From NCBI GenBank assembly GCA_035544955.1, contig DASZZN010000033.1, positions 139,329 to 203,328 of the forward strand: a stretch of DNA of 64,000 nucleotides, in the 5' to 3' direction. The notes below the pieces were generated by a model, which was given only the letters and a program-made list of their open reading frames with translations, ran no database searches and was not told the origin of the DNA. The stretch is from Candidatus Dormiibacterota bacterium. Its GTDB lineage: Bacteria > Chloroflexota > Dormibacteria > CF-121. Each line of letters opens with the position of its first letter. Position 1 is the first letter of the stretch. Below, piece by piece: positions 28,546 to 60,860 of this stretch. A program made the translations under genes and the position numbers.

Positions 28546-30993
28546 ATGCGTGTCCAGCGCTCGTTCGGCTTGCCCGCGCGGCTTGCATTGGCATCGCTGC
28601 TCGCCGGAACGACGCTGGCGGGGGCGTCCATCGGCGCCGCGGCCGCCAGCGACGTCACGCTCAGCGTCCTCGTCGGCTACCAGGACGTCGTCAAGCCCGG
28701 CGAGTGGATGCCGATCACGGTCGTCGCCAAGAACGGCGGAGCCGGTATCGATGGCACGCTCGAGCTCCAGGAGACGTTGAACGGCCAACCCGACGTCAGC
28801 GGCTTTCCCGTTTACCACGCGCCGATCAGTCTCGCCAGTGGAGCCAGCAAGCGGATCCGGGCGTACGCCATCATCGACACGAGCGGCGCGACGATCACGG
28901 CGCGAATCGTCCAGAGCGGCCGGGTGATCGTCTCCCAGGACTCCGCGTCGACGAGCACCACGTCGACGATGATCGGCGTCCTCTCCGACCAGGGCACGGC
29001 TCTTGATACCTTCGGGGCCGTTCACCCAGCGAGCGTCGCCGCCCGCGTGGTTCACCTGGCGGCCGGCGACCTCCCGGAGTCGGCGATTCCGCTACGCGCC
29101 TTCGACATCCTCGCGATCGACGACTTCGCCACCGACAGCCTGACCACGGGCCAGCGGACGGCCATCGGCGACTTCGTCCGCGCCGGCGGCGATCTTCTGT
29201 TGGGCACCGGCGCCGCCTGGCACAAGACGCTCGCCGGCCTGCCGACGGCGATCGTGCCGATGACGGTCAGCGGCACCACGAGCGTGACCACCTCCCTGCT
29301 CGGCGGCGCCCCTGTCGAGGTGGCCACCGGGGCCTCGACGCCGGGGCCGGTCTGGCTGGCGACCGGCAGCCAGCCGCTGCTGCTCGAGCGCCAGGTCGGG
29401 GCGGGCATGGTTACGCTTGCCACCTTCGATTGGAATCAGGATCCCGTCGCTGGCTGGAGCGGGACCGCCCCCCTCCTCCGCCAGATCATCGCGCGCTCCG
29501 TGATTGGCGTGGGCAGCTCCAACCAGAACTTCGCCTATGCGATGGGCGTGCCGGGCCCGATGAGCTTCACGTCGCAGCCATCGATCGCCTCCAAGAGCGG
29601 CGCCCTCAGCTCCACGTTAGGGAACCTCCCGGGACTCGACCTGCCATCGCTCCAGCTGACCGGCCTGCTCGTGCTGCTCTACGTCCTGCTCGTGGGTCCC
29701 GTGAACTACATCGTGTTGGGCGCGATGCGGCGCCGAGCGCTTGCCTGGGTCACCGTGCCCCTGATCGCCGTGATCGCCGCCGGCGGCGCCTACGGGGCCG
29801 GGGTCTTCACCAAGGGCCGCTCCGTGCAGGCCAACCAGATCACGATCCTGCATGTGCAGCCGGGCTGGGACCACGCTTACCAGGAAACGTACACCGGGAT
29901 CATGGCGCCGAGTCGCGGTGATTACCAGGCCGTCATCGGCGGAGGGCGGCTCCTGATCAGCCCGATCGTCAACAACAGCGGTTTCGGCCCGGGGGGCTTC
30001 GGAACGGGGTCGCGTGCGGGCAGCCTCCGCATCAACCTGGACAACAACACTGTCACGCTGCCAGGGATGACCGCCTTCGTGCTGGGTGGCTTCGCGACCG
30101 AGTCGATGAGCTCGGCGCCCCAGTTGGGCGCGCACCTCCAGGTGGTGAATGGCAAGCTCACCGGCACGATCGAGAACCACTCGAACCTGGCTTTCACGGA
30201 CGCCGTCCTGATCATGGGCGACAACTTTCAGACCTTTGGCGCGCTGAAACCCGGAGCGACGGCGGCCGTCTCACTGGACCCGAAGCCGTCCAACCTCTTT
30301 GGGCAGCCGACCTACAGCCGCATCTACGGAACCGCATACTTCACCGGCGGCCCGCAGCCGACTCAGCTGAGCGACGCGCAGCGCGAAGATTATGCGAAGG
30401 CGCAGATCCTGGCCGTGCTGCCCACCGGAGGAAGCTTCAAGGGCATTTCGTCCGCGAACACGCCGCTGCTGGTCGCCTGGACGCACGAGTCGTTCCAGGA
30501 CCTCACCGTGAACGGGAATCATCCGCGATCGACGGCCGAAACCGCGGTCGCCCTGTCGCTGTCGCTGGACCAGATTGGTACGGGCTCGTTGCCGGCCGGT
30601 GTCGTCAGCGGCCGCATCGTGGACGTCGTGGGTGACACGCAAGGCCAGGGACCGGTTGGCATGCTGCTGATCCAGAGCGGCAGCGTCACGTACGAATTTT
30701 CGCCCTTGCTGGCGGCCGGCACGCAACTGACCGCCGCCTCGCTCACCACCTCCAACCCGTACGGCGGCAAGTTCATCCCCGCCCCGGGCGGCGGTACAAC
30801 CGCTCCCACGGTCCAGGGACAGGTATGGGACTGGGCACGGTCGACCTGGACCGACGTCGCCTACCAGGACAACGGCACGACCACCCTACCCGACAGCGCC
30901 GTCAATCCCGACAGCGGCCTGGTGCGCCTTCGACTCAGCAGCAGCGGCGGCTTCGTGGCGGGGACCATTACGCTCGCAGGGACGGTCCGATGA
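28546..30993 (+). CDS. large secreted/membrane protein (815 aa): signal peptide, ~370-aa beta-rich domain, internal TM pair, second ~380-aa domain
   Basis: N-terminal signal 'LALASLLAGTTLAGASIGAAAAS'; central hydrophobic pair 'LTGLLVLLYVLLVGPV' and 'WVTVPLIAVIAAGGAYGAGV'; ATGA coupling to the ABC ATPase. Confidence 0.7.
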   Translation: MRVQRSFGLPARLALASLLAGTTLAGASIGAAAASDVTLSVLVGYQDVVKPGEWMPITVVAKNGGAGIDGTLELQETLNGQPDVSGFPVYHAPISLASGASKRIRAYAIIDTSGATITARIVQSGRVIVSQDSASTSTTSTMIGVLSDQGTALDTFGAVHPASVAARVVHLAAGDLPESAIPLRAFDILAIDDFATDSLTTGQRTAIGDFVRAGGDLLLGTGAAWHKTLAGLPTAIVPMTVSGTTSVTTSLLGGAPVEVATGASTPGPVWLATGSQPLLLERQVGAGMVTLATFDWNQDPVAGWSGTAPLLRQIIARSVIGVGSSNQNFAYAMGVPGPMSFTSQPSIASKSGALSSTLGNLPGLDLPSLQLTGLLVLLYVLLVGPVNYIVLGAMRRRALAWVTVPLIAVIAAGGAYGAGVFTKGRSVQANQITILHVQPGWDHAYQETYTGIMAPSRGDYQAVIGGGRLLISPIVNNSGFGPGGFGTGSRAGSLRINLDNNTVTLPGMTAFVLGGFATESMSSAPQLGAHLQVVNGKLTGTIENHSNLAFTDAVLIMGDNFQTFGALKPGATAAVSLDPKPSNLFGQPTYSRIYGTAYFTGGPQPTQLSDAQREDYAKAQILAVLPTGGSFKGISSANTPLLVAWTHESFQDLTVNGNHPRSTAETAVALSLSLDQIGTGSLPAGVVSGRIVDVVGDTQGQGPVGMLLIQSGSVTYEFSPLLAAGTQLTAASLTTSNPYGGKFIPAPGGGTTAPTVQGQVWDWARSTWTDVAYQDNGTTTLPDSAVNPDSGLVRLRLSSSGGFVAGTITLAGTVR

Positions 30994-31907: not shown

Positions 31908-32950
31908 ACCGCGTCGCGATCGCGCTGTGGAATCCCATCGTCGCCAAGGAGTACCGCTCCCGGATGCGCACCTGGCGCTCACCGCTCGCTATGACGGTTT
32001 ACATCCTCTTGCTGGGCGGCCTGGGCTGGGCGGTCTTTGCGGCGATGGCGTATTCATCGCGCAATTCGTACAACGGTGGGCAGGCCGCCAATTACGGACA
32101 AGGCTTGTTTCTCTATCTGGTGCTGTTTCAAATGGTGTTGCTCGCGTTCATCACCCCGGCCCTGACGGCCGGCGCGATCAGCAGCGAACGCGAGCGCCAG
32201 ACGATCGATTTGCTCTTCGTGACGAAGCTTCCATCGTTTGCGATTCTGTGGGGCAAGCTGCTGGCATCGATGTCCTTCGTGCTCCTGCTCTTGCTGCTCT
32301 CGGTGCCGATTTTCAGTCTGGTGTTCCTTTTCGGCGGGATCGAGCTCGACCAGGTCGCCGCGGCCTTCCTCGTCACGGCGATCAGCGCGTTGACGCTCGG
32401 CATCATCGGGATCGCCTGCTCGACGGCGTTCCGGCGCACGCTGCCGGCGACCGTCACCGCCTACGGGGCGGCCTTCATCCTGCTGGCGGGCAGCCTGCTC
32501 TTTGGGCTCCTCTTCCCGACCGACATCGATCCCAAGGCGACCGCCGCGCCGGCGCCGCCCGCCGTGACATATCTGAGTCCCCTGATTCCCCTGATTACGA
32601 TCGGGACCAACGGGCCCATCACGAATTTCGGGGTGCGCAACGGCGGCCCGCTGTACGGGACCAGTGGCAGCGGCACGACCACGTGCTCCATCACGCCCGG
32701 CGGCATGAAAAGCTGCTACCAGGTCGGCCCGACCGGACCGATCGGAAAAGGCATCATCACGGCCTACCCGGCGCAAGCCACCGGGACGGTCATCCCGAGC
32801 GGGCTCTTCACCGGCTGGCAATACTGGCAGGCGACCGTCACGTTGCAGCTCGCCATCTGTCTCGTCGCCCTCATCGTGGGTGCGATGCTGATCCCACCGA
32901 TTCGCCACCTGCCATGGCGGAGGCGCGCCCCGATAAAGGTCAAGCCATGA
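31904..32950 (+). CDS. ABC-2 family permease
   Basis: 348 aa, six hydrophobic helices, ATGA-coupled to flanking genes. Confidence 0.8.
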   Translation: MNRVAIALWNPIVAKEYRSRMRTWRSPLAMTVYILLLGGLGWAVFAAMAYSSRNSYNGGQAANYGQGLFLYLVLFQMVLLAFITPALTAGAISSERERQTIDLLFVTKLPSFAILWGKLLASMSFVLLLLLLSVPIFSLVFLFGGIELDQVAAAFLVTAISALTLGIIGIACSTAFRRTLPATVTAYGAAFILLAGSLLFGLLFPTDIDPKATAAPAPPAVTYLSPLIPLITIGTNGPITNFGVRNGGPLYGTSGSGTTTCSITPGGMKSCYQVGPTGPIGKGIITAYPAQATGTVIPSGLFTGWQYWQATVTLQLAICLVALIVGAMLIPPIRHLPWRRRAPIKVKP

Positions 32951-34575
32951 ACTCGCTCGACGCGATCATCCGCGAACTCGGACGGGCCGCGGCCCGCGCT
33001 CGAGCCACGCGCTATGGCGTGCACGCGCTGGTCGCGGCGCTCGCCTGGGTCACCCTGGTACTGGCCATCGCCCGACTCACCCCCTTTGAGGGGCGCGCAC
33101 TGGTGGCCGCCGTCGGCATCCCGGTCGTGCTGGCCATCGCGGTGCTCGCCTGGCTGATCCGCCGTCCGAGCGCGGCCGTGCTGATGCGGCTCGCCGATTT
33201 CCGGCTGGGCCTCAAGGAGCGGCTCTCGACGGCCTGGGAGCGGCGGACCGAATCCGGCCCGCTAGACGATGTGCAGCGGGGCGATGCCCTGCGGCAGGCC
33301 GCGGGCGCCCGGCTCGGGACGGCATTTCCCGTGCGGGTGAACCGAGGCGAGGCCTCGCTGATTGCCGTCCTCGCGATCTTTTCGCTGGCGCTCGCGCTGC
33401 TCCCCAACCCGATGGACCAGGTCCTGGCGCAGCGCCAGGCCGACCGCCTGAGCCAGGCGCGCGCCGCCAAGGCCCTGCAGACGGCGCAGAAAAAAATCGC
33501 CGACAGTCCGAAACCGACGCCGGTGGACCCGCAGGTGCAGAAGATCCTCAAGGATGCCGCCGCCAAGATTCAACAGGCCGACAGCCCCCGCAAGGCCCTC
33601 GAATCGATCACGCCGGCCGAACAGCAACTCCAGAGTCTGACCGACCCCGGGACGCCGGCCCTGAGCAGCAGTGCGCAGAACCTCGCCAATGCCTTGAGCG
33701 CGACGGCGGCCGGCAAGAGCGCCGCCCAGGCGATCGCCAGCAGCCCGGCCAAGGGGGCACAGTCCGTGCGCGACCTCGCCTCGCAACTGCAGAACCTCTC
33801 GCCCAAAGATCGCGAGGAGCTGGCGAAGGCGCTCGCGAAGGCCTCCCAGCAGGCGCAAAACAGCCAGATGCGCGACTCGTTGAGCAAGGCCTCGTCCTCG
33901 TTGAAGAGCGGCGACACGACCTCGGCGGCCCAGGCCCTCAATGACGTCGCGAGTCAGCTGGACTCCCTCCAGCAGCAGCAGAACACCGACCAGGCAGTCG
34001 CCTCGGCGATCAACGGGCTGGAGTCCGCCCGTCAGGAGCTCGCCACCCAGGCGGACCGCGACGCGAAAGGCCAGGGGGCGCAGGCGAACGCGGGTAGCAG
34101 CGCATCGCCGGGCGCAAGTCCCGGGGCCGGTGCCAGCGCGAGCGGTAGCGGCACGGGGACGGGCACGGGGACCGGCACGGGCACAGGGACAGGCACCGGG
34201 ACCGGGACCGGCACCGGGACCGGGACCGGCACCGGCACTGGGACGGGCACAGGGACCGGCACCGGCAGCGGTGGGTCCGGCGGTTCCGGCGGCACCGGCT
34301 CCAATGGCTCGGGAACCGGCGGCGGTTCCGGAGCGGCGAGCACCGAGCGCGTCTACGTGCCCGGCCAGCCGGTGCCCGGTCAGTCGCAGAACGATCCCAC
34401 GCCGCTTGGCCCGGGACAGGATGTGCCGCTGAGCCCCTACAGCCAGGTGATCCAGGCCTACCAGCAAGCGGCGCTCGACGCCACGGAGCAGAGCCTGATC
34501 CCCGGCAGTGAGCGCGACCTCGTACGCCAGTATTTCTCGCAGCTCGGTGAGCAGAGTGCGGCCGGCCCCCGGTAA
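32947..34575 (+). CDS. membrane-anchored coiled-coil protein with (Gly-Thr)17 repeat
   Basis: Two N-terminal TM helices, Ala/Gln/Ser-rich low-complexity segment, perfect (GT)17 dipeptide repeat then Gly/Ser linker and a conserved-looking C-terminal ~60 aa. Confidence 0.7.
   Translation: MNSLDAIIRELGRAAARARATRYGVHALVAALAWVTLVLAIARLTPFEGRALVAAVGIPVVLAIAVLAWLIRRPSAAVLMRLADFRLGLKERLSTAWERRTESGPLDDVQRGDALRQAAGARLGTAFPVRVNRGEASLIAVLAIFSLALALLPNPMDQVLAQRQADRLSQARAAKALQTAQKKIADSPKPTPVDPQVQKILKDAAAKIQQADSPRKALESITPAEQQLQSLTDPGTPALSSSAQNLANALSATAAGKSAAQAIASSPAKGAQSVRDLASQLQNLSPKDREELAKALAKASQQAQNSQMRDSLSKASSSLKSGDTTSAAQALNDVASQLDSLQQQQNTDQAVASAINGLESARQELATQADRDAKGQGAQANAGSSASPGASPGAGASASGSGTGTGTGTGTGTGTGTGTGTGTGTGTGTGTGTGTGTGTGSGGSGGSGGTGSNGSGTGGGSGAASTERVYVPGQPVPGQSQNDPTPLGPGQDVPLSPYSQVIQAYQQAALDATEQSLIPGSERDLVRQYFSQLGEQSAAGPR
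34150..34267 (+). repeat. imperfect hexanucleotide tandem repeat (GGSACS)n encoding (Gly-Thr)17
   Basis: ggcacgggg acgggcacg ... accggcacc, read directly; the minus-strand 'PVPVPV' ORF is its mirror image. Confidence 0.85.
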
Positions 34576-34602: not shown

Positions 34603-35601
34603 ATGATCGCCGAAGAACCGCGCATCGACGCCGCCAGGGTGACCGAACTGGCCCAATCCCTCGAGACCGAGCTGGCCCGTCTCATCGTGGGACAGCAGGC
34701 ACTGCTTCGCGACACCGTCATCGCCCTAATCGCCAACGGCCATGTCCTGCTCGAAGGCGTGCCGGGTCTGGGCAAGACCGTACTCGTCCGATCGCTGGGC
34801 GAGGCGCTCTCGATGAGCTTTTCCCGCGTCCAGTTCACGCCGGACCTGATGCCCGCCGACATCGTGGGGACCAACGTCATCGGCGACGAGGCCGGCCGGC
34901 GGGAGTTCCACTACCAGGCCGGACCCATCTTCGCGAATCTCGTCTTGGCCGACGAGATCAACCGTGCCACGCCGAAGACGCAAAGCGCACTGCTGGAAGC
35001 GATGCAGGAACGCACCGTCACCGTCGGCACCCAGACCCGCCCGTTGCCGTCGCCGTTTTTCGTCCTCGCCACCCAAAACCCGATCGAGCTCGAAGGGACC
35101 TACCCGCTGCCTGAAGCGCAGCTGGATCGGTTTTTCTTCAAGGTCCTGGTGCCCTTCCCCAGCGAGCGCGACCTGCTCGAGATTGCGCGGCGTACCACCG
35201 GCGGGTCGACGCCGAAGCTTCGCCCGGTCGCCGATGCCGAAACCGTCCTTGCGGCACAACGGGTGGCACGCGAGGTGCCGATCGCCGAGCACGTGCTGTT
35301 GTATGCCGCCCGCCTGATCGGCGCAACCCACCCCGACCGTACCGAGCTCGACAGCGTGCGCCGCTACGTCCGCTGGGGCGCCAGCCCCCGCGGCCTGCAG
35401 ACCATGGTGCTTGGCGCCAAGGTGCGGGCGCTGCTCGAGGGACGCTACAACGTCGCCTTCGACGACCTCAGCGCCGTCGCCCAGCCGGCGTTGCGACACC
35501 GGATCTTTCTGCAGTTCGAGGCCGAGGCCGACGGGATGACCGCGGACCGTCTCATCAGCGAGATCCTGGAGCACACCGTCAAGGAACCGGCGAAGGCCTA
35601 G
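34603..35601 (+). CDS. MoxR-family AAA+ ATPase
   Basis: Walker A 'GVPGLGKT', Walker B 'LVLADEINRATPKTQSALLEAMQE', sensor regions. Confidence 0.9.
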   Translation: MIAEEPRIDAARVTELAQSLETELARLIVGQQALLRDTVIALIANGHVLLEGVPGLGKTVLVRSLGEALSMSFSRVQFTPDLMPADIVGTNVIGDEAGRREFHYQAGPIFANLVLADEINRATPKTQSALLEAMQERTVTVGTQTRPLPSPFFVLATQNPIELEGTYPLPEAQLDRFFFKVLVPFPSERDLLEIARRTTGGSTPKLRPVADAETVLAAQRVAREVPIAEHVLLYAARLIGATHPDRTELDSVRRYVRWGASPRGLQTMVLGAKVRALLEGRYNVAFDDLSAVAQPALRHRIFLQFEAEADGMTADRLISEILEHTVKEPAKA

Positions 35602-35603
35602 CC

Positions 35604-36482
35604 GTGACGCCGGCCGTCCTCCTGGAGCCCGCCCTGCTTCGCCGTCTCGAAGGCCTTGCGCTCCAGGTCCGGCGCGCCGTCAGCGGGCAAATGAGTGGCG
35701 AACGGCGCTCACGCCGCCGCGGCCAGTCTGTCGAATTCGCGGATTTTCGCAACTACACCGCCGGCGACGACTTTCGGCTGATCGATTGGAACGCGTATGC
35801 CCGACTCGACCGGTTCATGCTGCGCCTCTTCGTCGCTGAAGAAGAGTTGCCCCTGAGCCTATTCGTCGATCTCAGCGGGTCGATGGACTGGGGCAAACCG
35901 AACAAAGCCGAGGCGGCGAGGCAGCTGGCCGGTGCCATCGCCTACGTCGCCCTGGCGGCGTTGGACCGCGTGCGGCTGACGGTCTTTGCGGACGGCCCGA
36001 CGTCCGGTGGAGCACCCTACCGCGGCCGGCGCGCCGCCGCGGAACTGTTCGCCCGGCTGCAATCGCTGCCGGCGGGCGGCGTCACGAACTATCAGAAGCT
36101 GGTCTGGCCGATTGGCCGGCAGCGGCCGGGCATGAGCGTGCTCATCAGCGACGGCCTCGGCGAGACGTCGATGGATCCGGCGCTGATGGCGTTGCAGCGC
36201 GCACAGCAGGAAGGCGCGGTCCTGCAGCTGCTTGCCCCACAGGAGCTGACGCCGGACTGGTCAGGCGATGCCCGCCTGAAGGACGCCGAGACCGGGCTGG
36301 AGCGGGAGTTTACCGCCACGCCGCTGACCCAGGGCAGCTACCTGCGTGCGCTGGCCCAGCGCACGGATGATATCGAGCGGGCCGCCCGTCGGCGGGGCCT
36401 GCGCTTCGCTCGCCTGTCGACGGCAGAACCCATCGACGAGATGGTGCAGATCACGCTGCGCCGCCTCGGGCTGCTCGGATGA
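35604..36482 (+). CDS. DUF58-domain protein (MoxR partner, VWA-like)
   Basis: 'FADFRNYTAGDDFRLIDWNAYARLDR' DUF58 signature; immediately downstream of MoxR. Confidence 0.8.
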   Translation: MTPAVLLEPALLRRLEGLALQVRRAVSGQMSGERRSRRRGQSVEFADFRNYTAGDDFRLIDWNAYARLDRFMLRLFVAEEELPLSLFVDLSGSMDWGKPNKAEAARQLAGAIAYVALAALDRVRLTVFADGPTSGGAPYRGRRAAAELFARLQSLPAGGVTNYQKLVWPIGRQRPGMSVLISDGLGETSMDPALMALQRAQQEGAVLQLLAPQELTPDWSGDARLKDAETGLEREFTATPLTQGSYLRALAQRTDDIERAARRRGLRFARLSTAEPIDEMVQITLRRLGLLG

Positions 36483-38302
36483 GCTTCCTCGCCCCGGCGG
36501 CCGCGATCCTGGCGCTGACGCTCCCGGCCATCGTCGCGTTGTATTTCTTAAAGATCCGGCGGCCGACGCGGATCGTGCCCGCGCTGCATCTGTGGCCCGA
36601 TCAGATCCGCGACCGCCAGGCCAACGTCCCCTGGCAACGGCTTCGTCCCAGCTGGCTGCTATTTCTCCAGTTGCTCGCCGCCGCGGTCCTGGTGGCGGCG
36701 GCCGTCCAGCCGGCGCTCCCCGCCGGCGCCGCGCTGGCCCGCCACAGCATCGTGCTGCTCGACGCGTCGGCATCGATGCAGGCGACCGACGTCGCGCCGT
36801 CGCGCCTCGAGGAGGCGAAGCACCAGGTCAATGCCATCATCGACCAGCTCGGGCCACAGGACCGAATGACGGTGATCGCCGTCGGGCCCGCCGCCCGCAT
36901 CGTCGCTTCTGTCACTGGCGACCGGGACACGCTGCATCGCGCGGTCAACGCCGTCCCGGCGAGCAATGGCGCGGCGGACTTATCAGCTGCTTTGGCGCTG
37001 GCCGCGGGCCTGGTCCGCGCGGGCGACGACGCCCGCGCCTACCTGTTCGCCGACGGCATCGTCCAGCCGCTGCGCGCGTCGTTCGCGGCCGGCCTGCCGT
37101 TTCCCGTCGAGTACCATCGGGTCGGCGTCTCGGGGGAAAACGTCGGGCTGACGTCGCTAACGGTCCGGACCAGCGCACAGTTGCGAGCCGCCTATCTGCA
37201 CGTGCAGAACTTCGGTCAGCAGCCGCGCTCGGTCACCGTCGAGTGGCGGGCCGACGGCCACCTGCTCGATGTGCGGCCATTGACGCTCGCGGCCGCCCAG
37301 GCGCAGGACCTGGTCCTCCCAGTTCCGAGCGACGCGACGTCGGTCTCCGCGCACCTCGCCGGCAACGACATCTTCGCGCTCGACGACGGCGCGACCGCGG
37401 TCGCCAGCACGCCCCGCGCCTTCCGCGTCCAGCTGGTGACCCCAGGCAACGTCTTCCTCGAGCAGGCGCTCCGCCTGCGCACCGACCTCCAGATCGATGT
37501 CATCGTCCCGGCGGCCTACCGGGCGAGCGCCGCCTATGCTCTGACCGTTTTCGACCGCTTCTCGCCGCCGCTGCTGCCCGACGGCCCGTTCGTCATGGTC
37601 GATCCGCCGTCGGGGTCGGTGCTGGCCGGCGGGCAACCGATCGGCGTCGGGCGCGTCCGTGCCGTCGACGCCGGCGATCCCCTGCTGGCCAATGTCGACC
37701 TGCAGGACGTCCATGTCGCCCGCAGCCAGGACTTGAGCAGCTCGACATTCGGCCGGCCGCTGATCAGCAGCCTGCAGACGCCCCTGGTCCTCGTCCGCGA
37801 CGAGCCGTTTCGTCAGGTGCTGGTCGGTTTCGATCTGCACGAGTCCGACCTCCCGCTGCGCATCGCGTTTCCGATCCTGGTCCAGAACCTGAGTGAGTGG
37901 CTGCTGCCCCCGAGCGTCCCCAGCCACAGCTTCCATCCGGACGAACCCGTCACCATCGTGCCCGAGGCGGGTGCAACGTCGGTGACCGTGGTCCGGCCGG
38001 ACGGCAGCCGCCGGCCCATCGCGACCGCGTCCATTGCGACCTTCGGCGAAACCGACCAGACGGGCCTCTACACCGTCGAACAGGTCGTCGCCGGCAAGGT
38101 GGACCGCTCCTGGTTCAGCGTGAATTTGTTTTCTGATCCGATTTCGCAGCTCAAGCCACCCGACCGGCTGACGCTGCCGCCGACGAGGACGACCGTGGTG
38201 CAGGCGACCCATCGCGGCCAGCTCGAGATCTGGCCGTGGATCGCGCTCGCGGCGCTTGCCGTCGTGACGGCCGAATGGCTGGCCTTCCACCGTGGGCTTT
38301 GA
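36479..38302 (+). CDS. BatA-like membrane protein (BatA N-terminal domain + VWA)
   Basis: 'LTLPAIVALYFLKIRRP' aerotolerance-regulator N-domain, MIDAS 'VLLDASASM', C-terminal TM. Confidence 0.8.
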   Translation: MSFLAPAAAILALTLPAIVALYFLKIRRPTRIVPALHLWPDQIRDRQANVPWQRLRPSWLLFLQLLAAAVLVAAAVQPALPAGAALARHSIVLLDASASMQATDVAPSRLEEAKHQVNAIIDQLGPQDRMTVIAVGPAARIVASVTGDRDTLHRAVNAVPASNGAADLSAALALAAGLVRAGDDARAYLFADGIVQPLRASFAAGLPFPVEYHRVGVSGENVGLTSLTVRTSAQLRAAYLHVQNFGQQPRSVTVEWRADGHLLDVRPLTLAAAQAQDLVLPVPSDATSVSAHLAGNDIFALDDGATAVASTPRAFRVQLVTPGNVFLEQALRLRTDLQIDVIVPAAYRASAAYALTVFDRFSPPLLPDGPFVMVDPPSGSVLAGGQPIGVGRVRAVDAGDPLLANVDLQDVHVARSQDLSSSTFGRPLISSLQTPLVLVRDEPFRQVLVGFDLHESDLPLRIAFPILVQNLSEWLLPPSVPSHSFHPDEPVTIVPEAGATSVTVVRPDGSRRPIATASIATFGETDQTGLYTVEQVVAGKVDRSWFSVNLFSDPISQLKPPDRLTLPPTRTTVVQATHRGQLEIWPWIALAALAVVTAEWLAFHRGL

Positions 38303-40997
38303 TGTAAGCCGCCCCCTGCTGCTGGGGGCGGGCGTGCTGGCGCTGGTCATCATCGTCGCGATCTGGCGCTTCTTTCCGCCGCCATTACCGCCGCGGCGTG
38401 CGCGCATCTCGTTGGGGCTCCGCACCCTGATCGTGCTGCTGCTGACGGCCGCCCTCGCGGGCTTGCAGGTCCAGACGACGCCGGCGGCCCAATCGCTGCT
38501 GGTCGTGGCGGATCTTTCGGCAAGCGTGCAGAGCGCGTTGGACAGCGAAGCCGCCACCGTGCGACGCATCCTGCAACAGCGACAGGGCGACAACCGCGCC
38601 GGGGTCCTGAGCTTCGGTCGCGATCCTCAAGTGGAAGTGAACGTCAGTAAGGACCCGCAGTTCGGCGAGTTCCAGAGCCAACCCAACCCGCATTACACGG
38701 ACATCGCCGCGGCGCTCCAACTCGGCGGATCGATCCTCCCGGATGACAGCCGGCGGCACATCGTGCTGATCAGCGATGGGCGCGCGAACCTCGGCGACGC
38801 GGTCGGCGAGGCGCGCCTGCTCCGTGCGGAGGGGGTTCGGGTCGATACCGTTGCGCTGCCGGTGCCACTCGGCGCCGAGGCCTACGTCGATCGCCTCGAC
38901 GCGCCGCGTACCCTGACCCAGGGCCAGCAGGCCGATGCGCAGGCGCTGATCGTCAGCAACACGGCCACGCCGGCAACCGTCCGCTGGTACCTCGATCGCA
39001 CGCTGGTCAACACGGTGCAGCTCAACCTCCCGGTGGGTGAGACGACGGTCAAACAGACCGTCAAGCCGGCCGAGCCCGGATTCCACGCCGTTCGAATCGT
39101 GATCGATCCGGTGCGCGATACGTACGCCGAGAACAATCTCGGCGAGGCGCTGATCCAGGTGGTCGGACCGCCACGCGTCCTGCTCGTCGAAAACACGCTG
39201 GGCGAGGCAGCCAGCCTCGAGGCGGCGCTGCATTCGACGGGGATCGGCACCGCGGTCGTCACCCCTGACCAGTTGCCCCGCTCGGCCGCGGACCTCGCCG
39301 CCTACCAGGCCGTGGTCCTCGTCAACATTCCGGCGACGAGCCTGGGCGTCGACGGCATGGCGCTCTTGCAGGCATCCGTCCGCGACCTTGGCACGGGCCT
39401 GGTCGTCATCGGCGGCACGGAGAGCTACGGTCCCGGCGGATATGCCGGCACGACGTTGGAAACGGCACTTCCGGTCCAGATCCAGCTCCCGCTGGACATG
39501 CAGAAACCGCCGGTGGCGGTCGTCCTCGTGTTGGAATCAACAGAGAGTGGCCAGGGTGACCAGATTCTGCGTGGGGCGGCCGAGTCCGTCGTCGACCAGC
39601 TCACCCCGCGCGACAGCGTCGGCGTCACCGACGGCGGGATGGGCATGGTCATCCCGCTCGCCCCGCTGACGGACAAGGCCGCGGTCAAGCGCAAGATCGA
39701 GGCGCTGGGCCTCGGCGACCCGATGAGCTACGCCCCCGACCTGGGCGCGGCCGACCAGGCGCTGACCAAGACGAAGGCGGCCATCAAGCACGTCATTCTC
39801 TTTGGCGATGGCGACACCTTCGACCGCAACTATCAATCCGCGATCACCGCGATGTACAGCCGCGGAATCACGGTGTCGACCGTCGCGATCGCGGCCAACG
39901 CGACCGATGCGTCCGCGATGCAGTCGATGGCCGGCTGGGGACACGGCCGCTTCTATCAGAGCAACAGCCTGCAAGACGTGCCGCAGATCTTCTTGAAAGA
40001 GACGCGCGAGGCCCTCAAGCCCTGGATCGTCGAAGGACAAATCGCGCCACAGCTCGCGTCGCTGGCGGACGTGATTCCCGGGGTACCCCTCGACAGTTTT
40101 CCGACGATATCGGGCTACGTAGCGACCACGCCGCGGGCCGCCGCGGACATCGTGCTGAAGAGTCCCCAGGGCGATCCCTTGCTGGCGACCTGGCAGTACG
40201 GCCTGGGCCGGGTGCTGGCCTGGACCAGCGATGCGCAAGGCCGGTGGACGGCGGGCCTGCTGCAATGGCCGTCCGCCAATCGCTTCTTCGGGGATATCGT
40301 CCATGCGAGCCTGCCGCAGGCCGGCGACCCCGCGCTGCAGATCGAGACCCGGGTCCAGGGCGACCACACGCACCTGCTGGTGACCGCGCCGACGACCTCC
40401 GGCGCCACGGTGACGGTCAACGCCGTCACGCCCGACCTCGCCGGTGCCAGCCTGACGCTGTCGCCCACCGGCCCAGGCCGCTTCGAGGGCGACCTGCCCA
40501 CCGACCAGGTTGGCAGCTACCTGCTCCACGTGAGTGAGTCGGCCGGCGGCGTGGTTCGACACACGACGACGAGCGGGCTGGTGGTTCCCTATTCGCCCGA
40601 GTACCGAGACCTTGGCACCAACGTCGCTACGCTGACCGCGATCGCGCAGGCCGGGGGCGGCGTCGTGCTCTCGGACGTTTCGCAGGCATTCCGCCTCCCG
40701 GTACCGAGCGTGCATGCCGCCCAGCCGATCAGCGAGCTCCTGCTCGTGCTCGCGATCCTGCTCTTCCCGATCGACGTCGCCCTGCGGCGGCTCATCTTCC
40801 GGCTGGAAGACATGCCGGCCTGGCGCAAAGCGCTGCAGCGAGCGCCGGCGCCCGCCGTTCCCGCCGAGGCGACCGTGACACGGCTCCGGGAACGCGTCGA
40901 GGGCGTCCGCGCCGCCAGGGCGGCGCAACCCCGACCGCCCAAGAAACCCCCGGATGATCCCACCGGCGAGCTGCTGTCCCGCCGGCGCCGGCGTTGA
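38292..40997 (+). CDS. large VWA-domain membrane protein (BatB-like, 901 aa)
   Basis: N-terminal TM pair, MIDAS 'VVADLSASV', second VWA-like block 'VLVLESTESGQGD', C-terminal TM and basic tail. Confidence 0.8.
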   Translation: MGFDVSRPLLLGAGVLALVIIVAIWRFFPPPLPPRRARISLGLRTLIVLLLTAALAGLQVQTTPAAQSLLVVADLSASVQSALDSEAATVRRILQQRQGDNRAGVLSFGRDPQVEVNVSKDPQFGEFQSQPNPHYTDIAAALQLGGSILPDDSRRHIVLISDGRANLGDAVGEARLLRAEGVRVDTVALPVPLGAEAYVDRLDAPRTLTQGQQADAQALIVSNTATPATVRWYLDRTLVNTVQLNLPVGETTVKQTVKPAEPGFHAVRIVIDPVRDTYAENNLGEALIQVVGPPRVLLVENTLGEAASLEAALHSTGIGTAVVTPDQLPRSAADLAAYQAVVLVNIPATSLGVDGMALLQASVRDLGTGLVVIGGTESYGPGGYAGTTLETALPVQIQLPLDMQKPPVAVVLVLESTESGQGDQILRGAAESVVDQLTPRDSVGVTDGGMGMVIPLAPLTDKAAVKRKIEALGLGDPMSYAPDLGAADQALTKTKAAIKHVILFGDGDTFDRNYQSAITAMYSRGITVSTVAIAANATDASAMQSMAGWGHGRFYQSNSLQDVPQIFLKETREALKPWIVEGQIAPQLASLADVIPGVPLDSFPTISGYVATTPRAAADIVLKSPQGDPLLATWQYGLGRVLAWTSDAQGRWTAGLLQWPSANRFFGDIVHASLPQAGDPALQIETRVQGDHTHLLVTAPTTSGATVTVNAVTPDLAGASLTLSPTGPGRFEGDLPTDQVGSYLLHVSESAGGVVRHTTTSGLVVPYSPEYRDLGTNVATLTAIAQAGGGVVLSDVSQAFRLPVPSVHAAQPISELLLVLAILLFPIDVALRRLIFRLEDMPAWRKALQRAPAPAVPAEATVTRLRERVEGVRAARAAQPRPPKKPPDDPTGELLSRRRRR

Positions 40998-57833: not shown

Positions 57834-59300
57834 CTAGTGGCGGCGGCCGCGACCGCGCATCCGGCCGGCGGCCATGTTGTCCGTGTCGTCGTCGTCCTCG
57901 GCGTTCCTCTTTTGCCTGGACGCCTTGAACGACTCCGAGAAGGTGCTGATGAACTGATCGCGCAGTTCCATCGTCGAGACCTCGAATGCGTCCTTCAGCG
58001 TCCAGTGGTCGTCCGGCGAGTACTTACGCTCGCACGCCCAGAGCAGGAACGTGATCAGTTGCACATTGATGCTCGCCATGAGCTTCGAATCGCCCTTCGT
58101 CTTGGCGGTCTTATCCTTGCCCTTGCGTTTTGGGCCGGCGGCGGCCGGCGGTGGAGCCACGGTACCATCACCTGTTCGGACACCCCAGGTCGGCGCGCTC
58201 GGCGCGGGCGCCACAGCCGGCGCTTGCGCGACCAGGCTGGCGCGCAATGACGCCAGGTCGTCCTTGGGGGCCGTCTTGGCAGGCTCGGGAGCGGCCGGCG
58301 CCGGCATCGGCGCGGCCGGCGGCTGGTACGAGGGGATGGCGTCTCGTTTCTTGGGAATTGCCATCGGCGGCACCGAAAAGCTCTGCGGCGTCAGCGGCCG
58401 AGTCGGCGCCGCGGGCGCAGCCGGCGGTGGAGGCCCTACGGGCGGCATCATTGGCAGCGGCATCCCCTGTGGCGACATCGCTTGCTGGGGCATTGGCTGC
58501 TGCGGCATCGGCTGCTGCGGCATTTGCTGCTGGGGCATCCCCTGCTGCGGCATTTGCTGCTGTTGAGGCATCCCCTGCTGGGGATAGGCCGGGTAGCCAG
58601 GCTGGGGCTGGCCGGGATACCCCTGCTGCTGAGGGTACGGCTGGCCCTGTGGCTGCGCGCCCGGGTATTGGGCGCCCTGCTGATAGGGGGCGGCGGGATA
58701 ACCGGGTTGCTGGGGGTAGCCGCCAGCGCCCCACGAGGGAGCTTGCGGCATTCCGGGCTGCGGAGCCGGCGGCCAGCCCTGAGGGGCTCCCTGGGCAGGT
58801 GCGCCAGGATACTGGCCCGGTGGCGGCCCCTGCTGTGGCCACGGTGGCACCTGGCCTGGCACCGGCTGCGAGTAGGTCCGGTAGACGGGCGCGATCGGCC
58901 GCTGCTGATCGGGCGGGATGTAGGGAGCCGAGGGGCCCTGCAGCACCGCCTGACTGCGTCGGAGCAGGTCCAGCAGGCGGCCCTTATCGATATAGAGGTT
59001 GCCAGCGAGGGTGGGATTGACGCCCGGCGTAAAGGTGAACTCGCCGCTCTGGAACTCCCAGAGGAGATCGAAGGCCTGACGGGCGCCACGGACACGGCCC
59101 CCGCGGGCATGTGTCAGCGCACCGGACTGAAAGGCATAGACCCACTCCCCACGAGGCTCTCGGAGCTCCAGGACGCCAGATTGGCTGTTGTTGACCACCT
59201 GATCGAGGAGTCCGAGCAGCCCAACACGATCGATGGGGCTGAACGCCGGGGCTTTGGACCGGGCAGCCGGCTCCCCTTTGCCCTTGGCGAAGAGCTTCAC
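57834..59300 (-). CDS. DUF4388-domain protein with ~200-aa Pro/Gln-rich repeat region
   Basis: N-terminal 'LLGLLDQVVNNSQSGVLEL...EWVYAFQSGALTHA' DUF4388-like; central PQQ/MPQQ repeats; conserved-looking acidic C-terminal domain. Confidence 0.7.
   Translation of the reverse strand: MKLFAKGKGEPAARSKAPAFSPIDRVGLLGLLDQVVNNSQSGVLELREPRGEWVYAFQSGALTHARGGRVRGARQAFDLLWEFQSGEFTFTPGVNPTLAGNLYIDKGRLLDLLRRSQAVLQGPSAPYIPPDQQRPIAPVYRTYSQPVPGQVPPWPQQGPPPGQYPGAPAQGAPQGWPPAPQPGMPQAPSWGAGGYPQQPGYPAAPYQQGAQYPGAQPQGQPYPQQQGYPGQPQPGYPAYPQQGMPQQQQMPQQGMPQQQMPQQPMPQQPMPQQAMSPQGMPLPMMPPVGPPPPAAPAAPTRPLTPQSFSVPPMAIPKKRDAIPSYQPPAAPMPAPAAPEPAKTAPKDDLASLRASLVAQAPAVAPAPSAPTWGVRTGDGTVAPPPAAAGPKRKGKDKTAKTKGDSKLMASINVQLITFLLWACERKYSPDDHWTLKDAFEVSTMELRDQFISTFSESFKASRQKRNAEDDDDTDNMAAGRMRGRGRRH
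58440..58600 (-). repeat. tandem ~15-18-bp repeats (GGCATYKGCTGCTGC on + strand) encoding M/P-Q-Q-Q-x units
   Basis: Read directly: ggcattggctgctgcggcatcggctgctgcggcatttgctgctggggcatcccctgctgcggcatttgctgctg. Confidence 0.8.
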
Positions 59301-59350: not shown

Positions 59351-59989
59351 CTACAACGTGTTACCGGCCAGCAGCAGTGCTCTAACCTCGTCGTCGGTGA
59401 CCTGTGGCCATTCCTCGAAGAAGTTCCCGACCGCGTAGAACGGCTCCGGAGTCGCCAAACAGACGAATTCATCGACCAGCGGATCGAGCCAGGCGGCGGT
59501 ATCCGGCGGCGCGACCGGGGCTGCCAGCACCACCCGCTGAGCGCCACGGCGGCGAACCGTCTGAATACCTGCCTGCGCCGTGTACCCGGTGGCAACGCCA
59601 TCGTCGGTCAGAATCACGGTTCGGCCCTCGAGCGACGGCATCGCCCCCGCGCCCAGCGCCGCCAGCCAGGCGCGCAGTTCCTCGCGCTGGTGAGCAGCCG
59701 CCTGGAAGAGGTCGTCCTCGGTGAGCCCGAGGTGCTGGCTCAGCCGGCGATCGAAGACGAGTACCGCATCATCGTCGACGGCACCGATGGCGAGCTCGGG
59801 ATTGCCGGGCGCGCCAAGCTTTCGAACCGGGCAGATCCCGAGCGGTAGATGGAGATCGACTGCGATCGCCTTTGCCACGACCGTGCCGCCGCGTGGAATG
59901 CCAAGGACGACCGTGCGTCCCTGGTCACGGTAGCGCTGCAGCGCTGCCGCCAGCTGCTCGCCAGCATCGACCCGATCGCGAAAAACCAC
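59351..59989 (-). CDS. phosphoribosyltransferase-domain protein
   Basis: 'VVLGIPRGG' and '[13 protein letters not shown]' PRTase motifs; GTG start chosen to avoid overlap with the divergent peroxiredoxin. Confidence 0.7.
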
Positions 59990-60027
59990 CGAACTACAAT
60001 AAGTCGATGTCGATCGCCACGCCGACC

Positions 60028-60516
60028 ATGCCCGGCGTCGGAGACCTGGCACCCGATTTCACCCTGCCGGGGACGCCCGACGGGGATCCGGTTGCCCTCT
60101 CCTCGTTCAAAGGCAAGAAGCATGTGCTGCTGGCCTTCTACGTTTTCGACTTCAGCCCCGGTTGAACGAATGAGCTCAGCTCCTTGCGAGGTGATTACCC
60201 GCAGTTCGTGAAGGCCGAGACCGAAATACTCGGGCTCAGCGTGGATCACATCTGGGCGCATAAGGCCTATGCGAAGAGCCTGGGCGACCTCCCGTTTCCC
60301 ATCCTCGCGGATTGGGACAAGTCTGTCGCCCGCCGCTACGGCGTCCTCAACGAGGAGCGCGGCGTGGCCCAGCGATCACTGTTCCTCGTCGACTACCGAG
60401 GCTACGTCCGCTGGCGCAACCCGCACTACGACTGGCGCAGCCAGGAGCAGTACGCCCAGGTGACCGAGGCAATGCTGGCGTTGCCCATGATCCCCCGAGC
60501 GAAGGAAGGGAAATAG
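60028..60516 (+). CDS. PrxQ/BCP-type peroxiredoxin with in-frame TGA (probable selenocysteine) at the peroxidatic position
   Basis: Track ORFs 59872-60165 and 60184-60516 are in the same frame, separated only by TGA at 60163-60165. Joined sequence '...[29 protein letters not shown]...' aligns with the PrxQ 'FYPKDFTPGCTTE' motif with TGA at the Cys. The second ORF has no ATG of its own (the track translates a TTG as Met). Confidence 0.65.
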
Positions 60517-60557
60517 AAAAGGCCAGCCCGAAGGCTGGCCGTTCATGGTCGAGTGGG

Positions 60558-60860
60558 TTAGCTCTTGCCGTTGGCGACGACGGCCAGAATGTCCTTCTCG
60601 GAGAGGATCAGGTACTCGGTCTCGTCGAGCTTGATCTCGCTGCCGGCGTACTTGGCGTAGACCACGCGGTCGCCGACTTTGACGTCCAGCGGCTCGCGCT
60701 TGCCGGTCGTCTCGATGAAGCGGCCGTTGCCGACGGCCTCGACCAGGCCTTCCTGCGGCTTCTCCTTGGCGGTGTCGGGCAGCACGATCCCGCTCTTGGT
60801 CTTCTCTTCCCGCTCGACGGGCTTGATTACGACGCGATCGCCCAGTGGACGTAGCTTCAT
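60558..60860 (-). CDS. groES: co-chaperonin GroES
   Basis: '[16 protein letters not shown]...[21 protein letters not shown]' full-length match; 'AAGGAGGG' RBS upstream. Confidence 0.95.

Follow-up and report, generated by a model that had tools for sequence, protein, structure and literature searches.

The window, i.e. the whole 64-kb stretch of DNA analysed, contains two open reading frames on the forward strand, 59872-60165 and 60184-60516, which share one frame, their offset of 312 nt being equal to 104 codons. Translation of 60007-60516 (+) gives one protein with a single in-frame stop, the TGA at 60163-60165, and this region is predicted to be a complete gene of a selenocysteine (Sec)-containing peroxiredoxin (Prx), comprising 169 codons, of which codon 53, at the position of the peroxidatic Cys, would specify Sec, and a TAG stop. 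The Pfam query and the search for related proteins were made with the read-through product with Cys put in at the TGA. Its single Pfam match, AhpC-TSA (PF00578), covers residues 11-136 and is unbroken across the TGA (E 2.5e-33, 115.1 bits vs a gathering cut-off of 26), and thus the two open reading frames are halves of one thioredoxin-fold domain. An earlier reading of this DNA, made from the sequence only, had proposed one frame broken by a single TGA, and both the translation and the domain match bear this out; it had also taken the TTG at the head of the second open reading frame for a read-through leucine, and TTG 60184-60186 is Leu codon +7 (counted from the TGA) of the continuous protein.

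The start, placed at 60028 by the sequence-only reading, is likely to be the ATG at 60007, which leaves the finding unchanged. The 60007 start is backed by a −10-like promoter hexamer, TACAAT, at 59995-60000 (+), 6 nt upstream of the ATG. Across the species of the Dormibacterota loci the hexamer varies (TACAAT, TATAGT, TAAAAT, TAGAAT) and the exact 6-nt gap to the ATG or GTG start is kept. No Shine-Dalgarno sequence is present upstream of the Prx start in the Dormibacterota loci, and the Prx mRNA is, judged by these sequences, probably leaderless. At the Chloroflexota-like locus L050, GGAGGAG precedes the Prx ATG.

In public assemblies the gene callers cut the window's locus, at the same coordinates, into a protein of 52 aa and one of 110 aa, and the P0001 loci are called as 52 aa and 110 or 118 aa. 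With the Cys-substituted read-through as query, each of the ca. 54 best protein clusters (63-93% identity) is a C-terminal fragment, 104-125 aa long, that spans only ca. 63% of the query; no full-length protein appears above 50% identity. The fragments carry the JGI annotation 'mycoredoxin-dependent peroxiredoxin'. All public assemblies examined annotate the gene wrongly, as two fragments, and peroxide defence is therefore under-described in Dormibacterota, an abundant, uncultured soil phylum.

The gene order phosphoribosyltransferase (−), Prx (+), groES (−), GDSL lipase is kept in all members except the most divergent one, L050. The mechanical open reading frame of the phosphoribosyltransferase, 59351-60052 (−), overlaps the Prx start; in related contigs its start is called at 59989 (212 aa), which leaves 17 nt between the divergent start codons. 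A terminator scan found, in the space that separates Prx from the convergent groES gene, a GC-rich, terminator-like hairpin (60521-60540) whose T-run is on the minus strand, the strand of groES. The groES gene (60558-60860, −) is solitary, convergent with Prx and not followed by groEL, and it is preceded by a sigma-70-like promoter match at 60943-60915. Elsewhere in the window, the long open reading frames 28546-30993, 31927-34575, and 57834-59300 (815, 882, and 488 aa) have a good coding signature and no Pfam match at E <= 1e-5; the second of them is located just upstream of a MoxR/DUF58/BatA-VWA cluster (34603-40997).

Conservation of the TGA codon

TGA terminates 22 of the 45 predicted genes of the window, including the full-length genes of PGK, GAPDH, UvrB, and UvrC, hence the genetic code is not reassigned; a genome-wide reassignment of TGA was rejected on the ground that the codon is an ordinary stop for about half of the window's genes. 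A recoding scan of the 64 kb in six frames, in which a TGA had to be flanked on either side by in-frame sequence of strongly coding character (high GC3 and low GC2), returned 60163-60165 as its sole match.

The column of the TGA is a cysteine column in homologues, as the sequence-only reading had supposed. Cys is found there in all 40 full-length homologues aligned (37-46% identity) and TGC or TGT in all 37 distant genomic loci, and the peroxidatic Cys of the best-matching Prx structures in the PDB aligns to the same column. In orthologues, with 59-97% protein identity, the codon is TGA in 129 of the 129 loci containing the region (ca. 43 species-level MAGs from a scan of one genome per species, and 80 soil metagenome contigs), within the motif FYVFDFSP[GT]-TGA-T[NK]E[LF]. 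Neither TGC nor TGT ever occupies the Sec position within this clade of 129 loci. The MAGs, from soil, are nearly all labelled Candidatus Dormibacterota or 'Chloroflexi bacterium CF_xx', with a few labelled Limnocylindria or other. The metagenome scan returned close relatives only (81-97% identity), and so it added no covariation to the analysis of the hairpin described below. Four contigs binned as Eisenbacteria, Thermoanaerobaculia, Acidoferrum, and Binatus (L017, L018, L021, and L043) carry a Prx 82-96% identical to that of the window and are probably mis-binned Dormibacterota contigs.

An exhaustive search with the C-terminal half of the protein gave many C-terminal-only proteins of ca. 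100 aa. For five of these, 38-57% identical and originating from samples including soil and TARA ocean, the DNA was retrieved, and a TGA is found in frame at the same column in all five (FTPG*IREL, FTGG*GHEL, FTPG*THQL, FSGG*QNEL, and FTGG*THEL). It is worth adding that the loci L174-L181, which comprise metagenome contigs, some of them from TARA ocean, and NCBI assembly GCA_016210245.1, represent at least five clades, other than the main one, that are split at the TGA and called as 44 aa and ca. 100 aa; the splitting of short peroxiredoxins at a peroxidatic TGA looks widespread.

The hairpin downstream of the TGA

A SECIS-like hairpin is located at 60172-60198 (+), in which 60176-60182 and 60188-60194 form the core stem and 60183-60187 the apical loop, CUUGC. 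When the U of UGA is numbered 1, U14-C20 pairs with G26-A32 around the loop C21-U-U-G-C25; the 7-bp stem with its 5-nt loop begins 10 nt past the UGA, and the UGA-to-loop spacing is 17 nt. The loop holds the TTG taken by ORF finders as a start codon.

Codons +4 to +11, which encompass this structure, are nearly frozen synonymously among 44 unique genomic sequences: CTC is found in 38/40, ACC in 38/38, TCC in 44/44, TTG in 44/44, CGA in 38/43, GGT in 35/38, GAT in 43/44, and CAC in 39/40. Four of these codons, TTG, CGA, GGT, and GAT, are minority codons in the rest of the gene. In a set of 101 unique sequences the normalised codon entropy is 0.108 in the block +4 to +11 vs 0.568 elsewhere (Mann-Whitney p = 5e-6), and the block has the lowest entropy among 104 sliding windows. 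Such freezing of synonymous sites beside an in-frame TGA is a sensitive detector of SECIS elements, even where the canonical loop rule fails.

The proposed pairing holds in 95.7% of the alignment cells of the hairpin, vs 30-56% in controls with the partners slid, and the consensus 27-mer folds with −10.2 kcal/mol (z −2.6). Covariation in the main clade comprises a change of A16-U30 to U16-A30 in four sequences and several changes of G-C to G-U and of U-A to U-G; it is slight because the stem hardly varies, which was counted against the SECIS reading. The distant Cys loci fold less stably (a mean of −3.9 vs −9.1 kcal/mol), which is a weak control given that their GC content is lower too.

The window's own copy is weaker, at −6.1 kcal/mol. 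The codon at 60178-60180 is AGC (Ser) only in the window and in its own Logan contig, L001; at this position 120 of the 127 other loci have ACC (Thr) and the seven most divergent ones TCC. The change from ACC to AGC weakens the stem by a G17·G29 mismatch and creates a competing GAGC/GCUC mini-hairpin. The minimum free energy (MFE) fold computed for the 68 nt that follow this TGA in the window (z = −0.43, with a structure unlike the conserved hairpin) is misleading, since the AGC variant is unique to this genome. For the same region the sequence-only reading had described a hairpin starting 7 nt after the TGA and composed of GAGCUCAGCUC and CCUUGCGAGG. A conserved RNA element at SECIS spacing does lie there, the actual element being the pairing of U14-C20 with G26-A32 around CUUGC at 60176-60194. 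The GAGCUCAGCUC palindrome, found solely in the AGC variant of this genome and hence only in the window and its Logan contig, was rejected as a conserved element; CCUUGCGAGG corresponds to another register of the same conserved hairpin. A longer lower stem, ACGAA (4-8) with UUCGU (43-47), was also rejected, as G6 is free to vary (ACG/ACC/ACA) and C45 shows no compensation.

In every lineage the hairpin apex lies 17-22 nt after the UGA (nt 21-25 for the five distant clades), the stems being different. The hairpins are GUCCUCCU-UUA-AGGAGGAC in L174, GCCUUCU-UGA-AGAAGGC in L175, CUGC-CUUGC-GCGG in L176, and CCUCC-UUGAA-GGAGG in L050, and the distance of the apex from the UGA is constant across nine sequence types with different stems. 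Compensatory pairs are seen in L175, with U20-A28 vs C20-G28 (C-G in L174 and L050), and in L176, with G19-C27 in place of the main clade's U19-A27. That the structure stays in position relative to the UGA although its sequence drifts is the behaviour expected of a SECIS, and this comparison of sequences gives the structural support that the main clade lacks.

The consensus 5' arm together with the loop, UCACCUCCUU, is identical to the canonical 3' tail of 16S rRNA (anti-SD), and the consensus 3' arm, GAGGUGAUC, resembles an extended Shine-Dalgarno sequence; the CCUCC/GGAGG pairing is kept in L050 and L174. These two arms distinguish the Prx hairpin from the canonical bacterial SECIS (bSECIS) of the E. 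coli fdhF type, with which it shares the character of a stem-loop that lies inside the ORF and immediately 3' of the UGA. The anti-SD/SD likeness of the arms may be a coincidence or may be mechanistically relevant. Rfam at the gathering threshold gave no match but one tRNA.

The reference for bSECIS was Zhang and Gladyshev's consensus model, taken from the summary of it in PMC13188914, with a loop of 3-9 nt, an upper stem of at least 4 bp, a UGA-to-loop distance of 16-37 nt, an MFE of −7.5 kcal/mol or lower, and a G within the first two positions of the apical loop (PMC13188914). The Prx hairpin agrees with it in loop size (5 nt), stem (7 bp), and spacing (17 nt), and the MFE limit of −7.5 kcal/mol stands between the −10.2 of the consensus and the −6.1 of the window's copy. 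The loop departs from the rule, as the main-clade loop C-U-U-G-C has its G in the fourth position, within a conserved apical U-U-G which the canonical bSECIS does not have. A U-G-A triloop, in which the G is second, is possible in L050 and L175, and the UUA of L174 has no G. About 13% of the bacterial selenoprotein genes in BSepDB are without a canonical SECIS (PMC13326102), and therefore the deviation of the loop weakens the Sec claim and is not fatal to it. The set of non-canonical hairpins could help to widen bSECIS models.

Decoding of the UGA

The UGA at codon 53 is very probably decoded as Sec, which would make 60007-60516 the gene of a hitherto unannotated Sec-peroxiredoxin. The sequence-only reading, which had called the gene a probable unannotated selenoprotein, is supported by the Cys column, the conservation of the TGA, and the RNA element at SECIS spacing. 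In the proposed mechanism, the UGA would be read as selenocysteine during translation, and the hairpin most likely acts as a bacterial SECIS, recruiting SelB·GTP·Sec-tRNA(Sec) to the ribosome; we infer that the residue inserted is Sec and that its insertion proceeds via SelB.

It is decidedly unlikely that the UGA is read through without Sec, either by insertion of Cys or Trp by a near-cognate or suppressor tRNA or by hairpin-stimulated read-through without SelB. The comparative data, which prove translation in frame and not the identity of the inserted residue, are compatible with such read-through, as is the deviation of the loop from the canonical bSECIS G rule (PMC13188914). The same applies to the Sec machinery, as none of selA, selB, selD, and tRNA-Sec was found in the 64-kb window or in related loci totalling 0.97 Mb. 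The searches comprised ARAGORN for tRNA-Sec in the window and 44 loci, Pfam for the sel genes among ca. 48 proteins of the window and L050, and tblastn for SelD and SelB in the DNA of the window and related loci, with E. coli queries; all of them were negative. An AIRS-family gene located ca. 4 kb away in relatives was considered as selD and rejected, because it adjoins thiE and thiS-thiG and is thus thiL. Against read-through without Sec stands the invariant UGA (129/129) at a redox-active Cys column, the classic Sec/Cys signature; TGC or TGT would be a cheaper way to Cys, yet it never occurs in the clade. Moreover, the hairpin spacing fits bSECIS, and TGA is an ordinary stop in the same window.

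A stop at the TGA followed by re-initiation at the TTG 18 nt downstream, giving proteins of 52 aa and 110 aa that act jointly or separately, is highly improbable. TTG 60184 is a legal start codon, invariant in the orthologous loci, and the gene callers predict exactly this split; however, the invariance of the TTG is explained by its place in the hairpin loop, and one distant clade has UUU in its stead. Just upstream of the TTG there is the anti-SD-like CACCUCC and no Shine-Dalgarno sequence, and the products would be parts of one split thioredoxin-fold domain without the catalytic residue. The six codons between the TGA and the TTG keep their amino acids and vary at third positions, which means that they are translated. 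In a per-codon analysis of the 44 unique genomic sequences, amino acids are conserved and synonymous change is free on both sides of the TGA. Codons +1 to +3, situated within the 18-nt gap separating the two called ORFs, vary at the third position only (ACG 22, ACC 18, ACA 3; AAT 21, AAC 17; GAG 40, GAA 3), hence the 'gap' is translated, which speaks against both termination with re-initiation at the TTG and a pseudogene. Judged by this pattern of substitution, both halves are under purifying selection at the protein level, and the comparison shows them to be made as one protein in this frame.

A pseudogene or a sequencing or assembly error (a TGC/TGT to TGA miscall), a risk raised already by the sequence-only reading and favoured by nothing more than the bare presence of the stop codon, can be practically discounted, given that 129 loci assembled independently of one another have the TGA, as do five more distant clades, and that both halves are under purifying selection amid abundant synonymous change.

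The Sec reading may be extended by assuming that the hairpin represents a distinct, non-canonical class of bSECIS, with an apical U-U-G and a stem composed of the anti-SD mimic UCACCUCCUU and the SD-like GAGGUGAUC, in which the SD-like arm, once unwound, would bind the 16S rRNA tail or pause the ribosome, and that Dormibacterota are an unrecognised Sec-using phylum with SelB-SECIS rules of their own. This extension is unlikely. No link between Dormibacterota and selenocysteine was found in the literature searched, a point counted against the Sec reading as a whole, and the use of selenium by Dormibacterota appears to be unreported there.

Type of peroxiredoxin and its proposed action

Sec-containing peroxiredoxins (pfam00578, TxxU) are a known bacterial selenoprotein family, as the sequence-only reading had maintained (PMC13188914, PMC2398784, PMC5029168); the GOS data contained 253 such sequences (PMC2398784), a survey of 2016 gave 78 organisms (PMC5029168), and a 2026 review lists the family as experimentally supported (PMC13188914). 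What is new here would be a phylum-wide Dormibacterota lineage of this family with a somewhat atypical SECIS loop. The finding leaves the mechanism of selenoproteins in general unchanged, Sec-peroxiredoxins being among the commonest bacterial selenoproteins.

By homology, Sec53 would occupy the peroxidatic position of the motif V-x-x-x-S-x-x-U, the equivalent of PxxxTxxC, and together with the conserved Arg123 would attack peroxides, being converted to a selenenic acid. Arg123 shows no variation in the Sec clade, and its conservation in the Cys homologues is at least 90%. The read-through protein contains no cysteine, and position +5, which is the resolving Cys in many Cys homologues, is Thr or Ser in the Sec clade. 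As there is no resolving Cys, Sec53 would have to be recycled by an external thiol reductase resembling thioredoxin, glutaredoxin or mycoredoxin, as in 1-Cys Prx enzymes such as AhpE.

None of the NCBIfam Prx equivalogs reaches its cut-off: PrxU (NF040737) scores 74 bits against 270, BCP (PRK09437) 56.6 against 140, and PrxQ (NF053650) 45.8 against 260. Among PDB structures the protein matches best Prx1/AhpC-type enzymes (residues 8-136) and Mycobacterium tuberculosis AhpE (residues 8-148, E ca. 1e-20). The PrxQ/BCP label given by the sequence-only reading is thus right only loosely, considering the below-cut-off scores of the BCP and PrxQ models, the Prx1/AhpC and AhpE structures as best matches, and the Thr or Ser at +5. 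On its sequence, the protein is best described as a 1-Sec, AhpE/BCP-like member of AhpC/TSA, not placed in one subfamily.

The Dormibacterota protein resembles PrxU of Eubacterium acidaminophilum (NF040737) in the AhpC/TSA fold, the predicted Sec in place of the peroxidatic Cys, and the hairpin in the coding region after the UGA, and it shares with the Sec-Prx family the existence of many Cys-containing homologues. It is, however, not a PrxU equivalog, being 169 aa long vs ca. 233, and it differs from PrxU and the Sec-Prx family in its VxxxSxxU motif (PxxxTxxU in the latter), in having no Cys, and in its Dormibacterota/soil Chloroflexota-like source. With AhpE (Rv2238c) it has in common a similar length, an alignment over the full length, and the one-cysteine mechanism without a resolving Cys, but AhpE has Cys instead of Sec, and the similarity to it is no higher than that to Prx1/AhpC-type enzymes. 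The likeness to BCP/PrxQ consists in the 'PG-C/U-T' context of the active site and in the BCP-type CxxxxC pair of many of the nearest Cys homologues, whose +5 resolving Cys is replaced by Thr or Ser in the Sec clade. The active-site motif itself, V-F-D-F-S-P-G-U, differs from PxxxTxxC by Val for Pro, Ser for Thr, and the predicted Sec for Cys. The same V...S variant is present in the closest Cys homologue, P0055, and the distant Sec clades keep the canonical P/T (FFPLAFTPG*).
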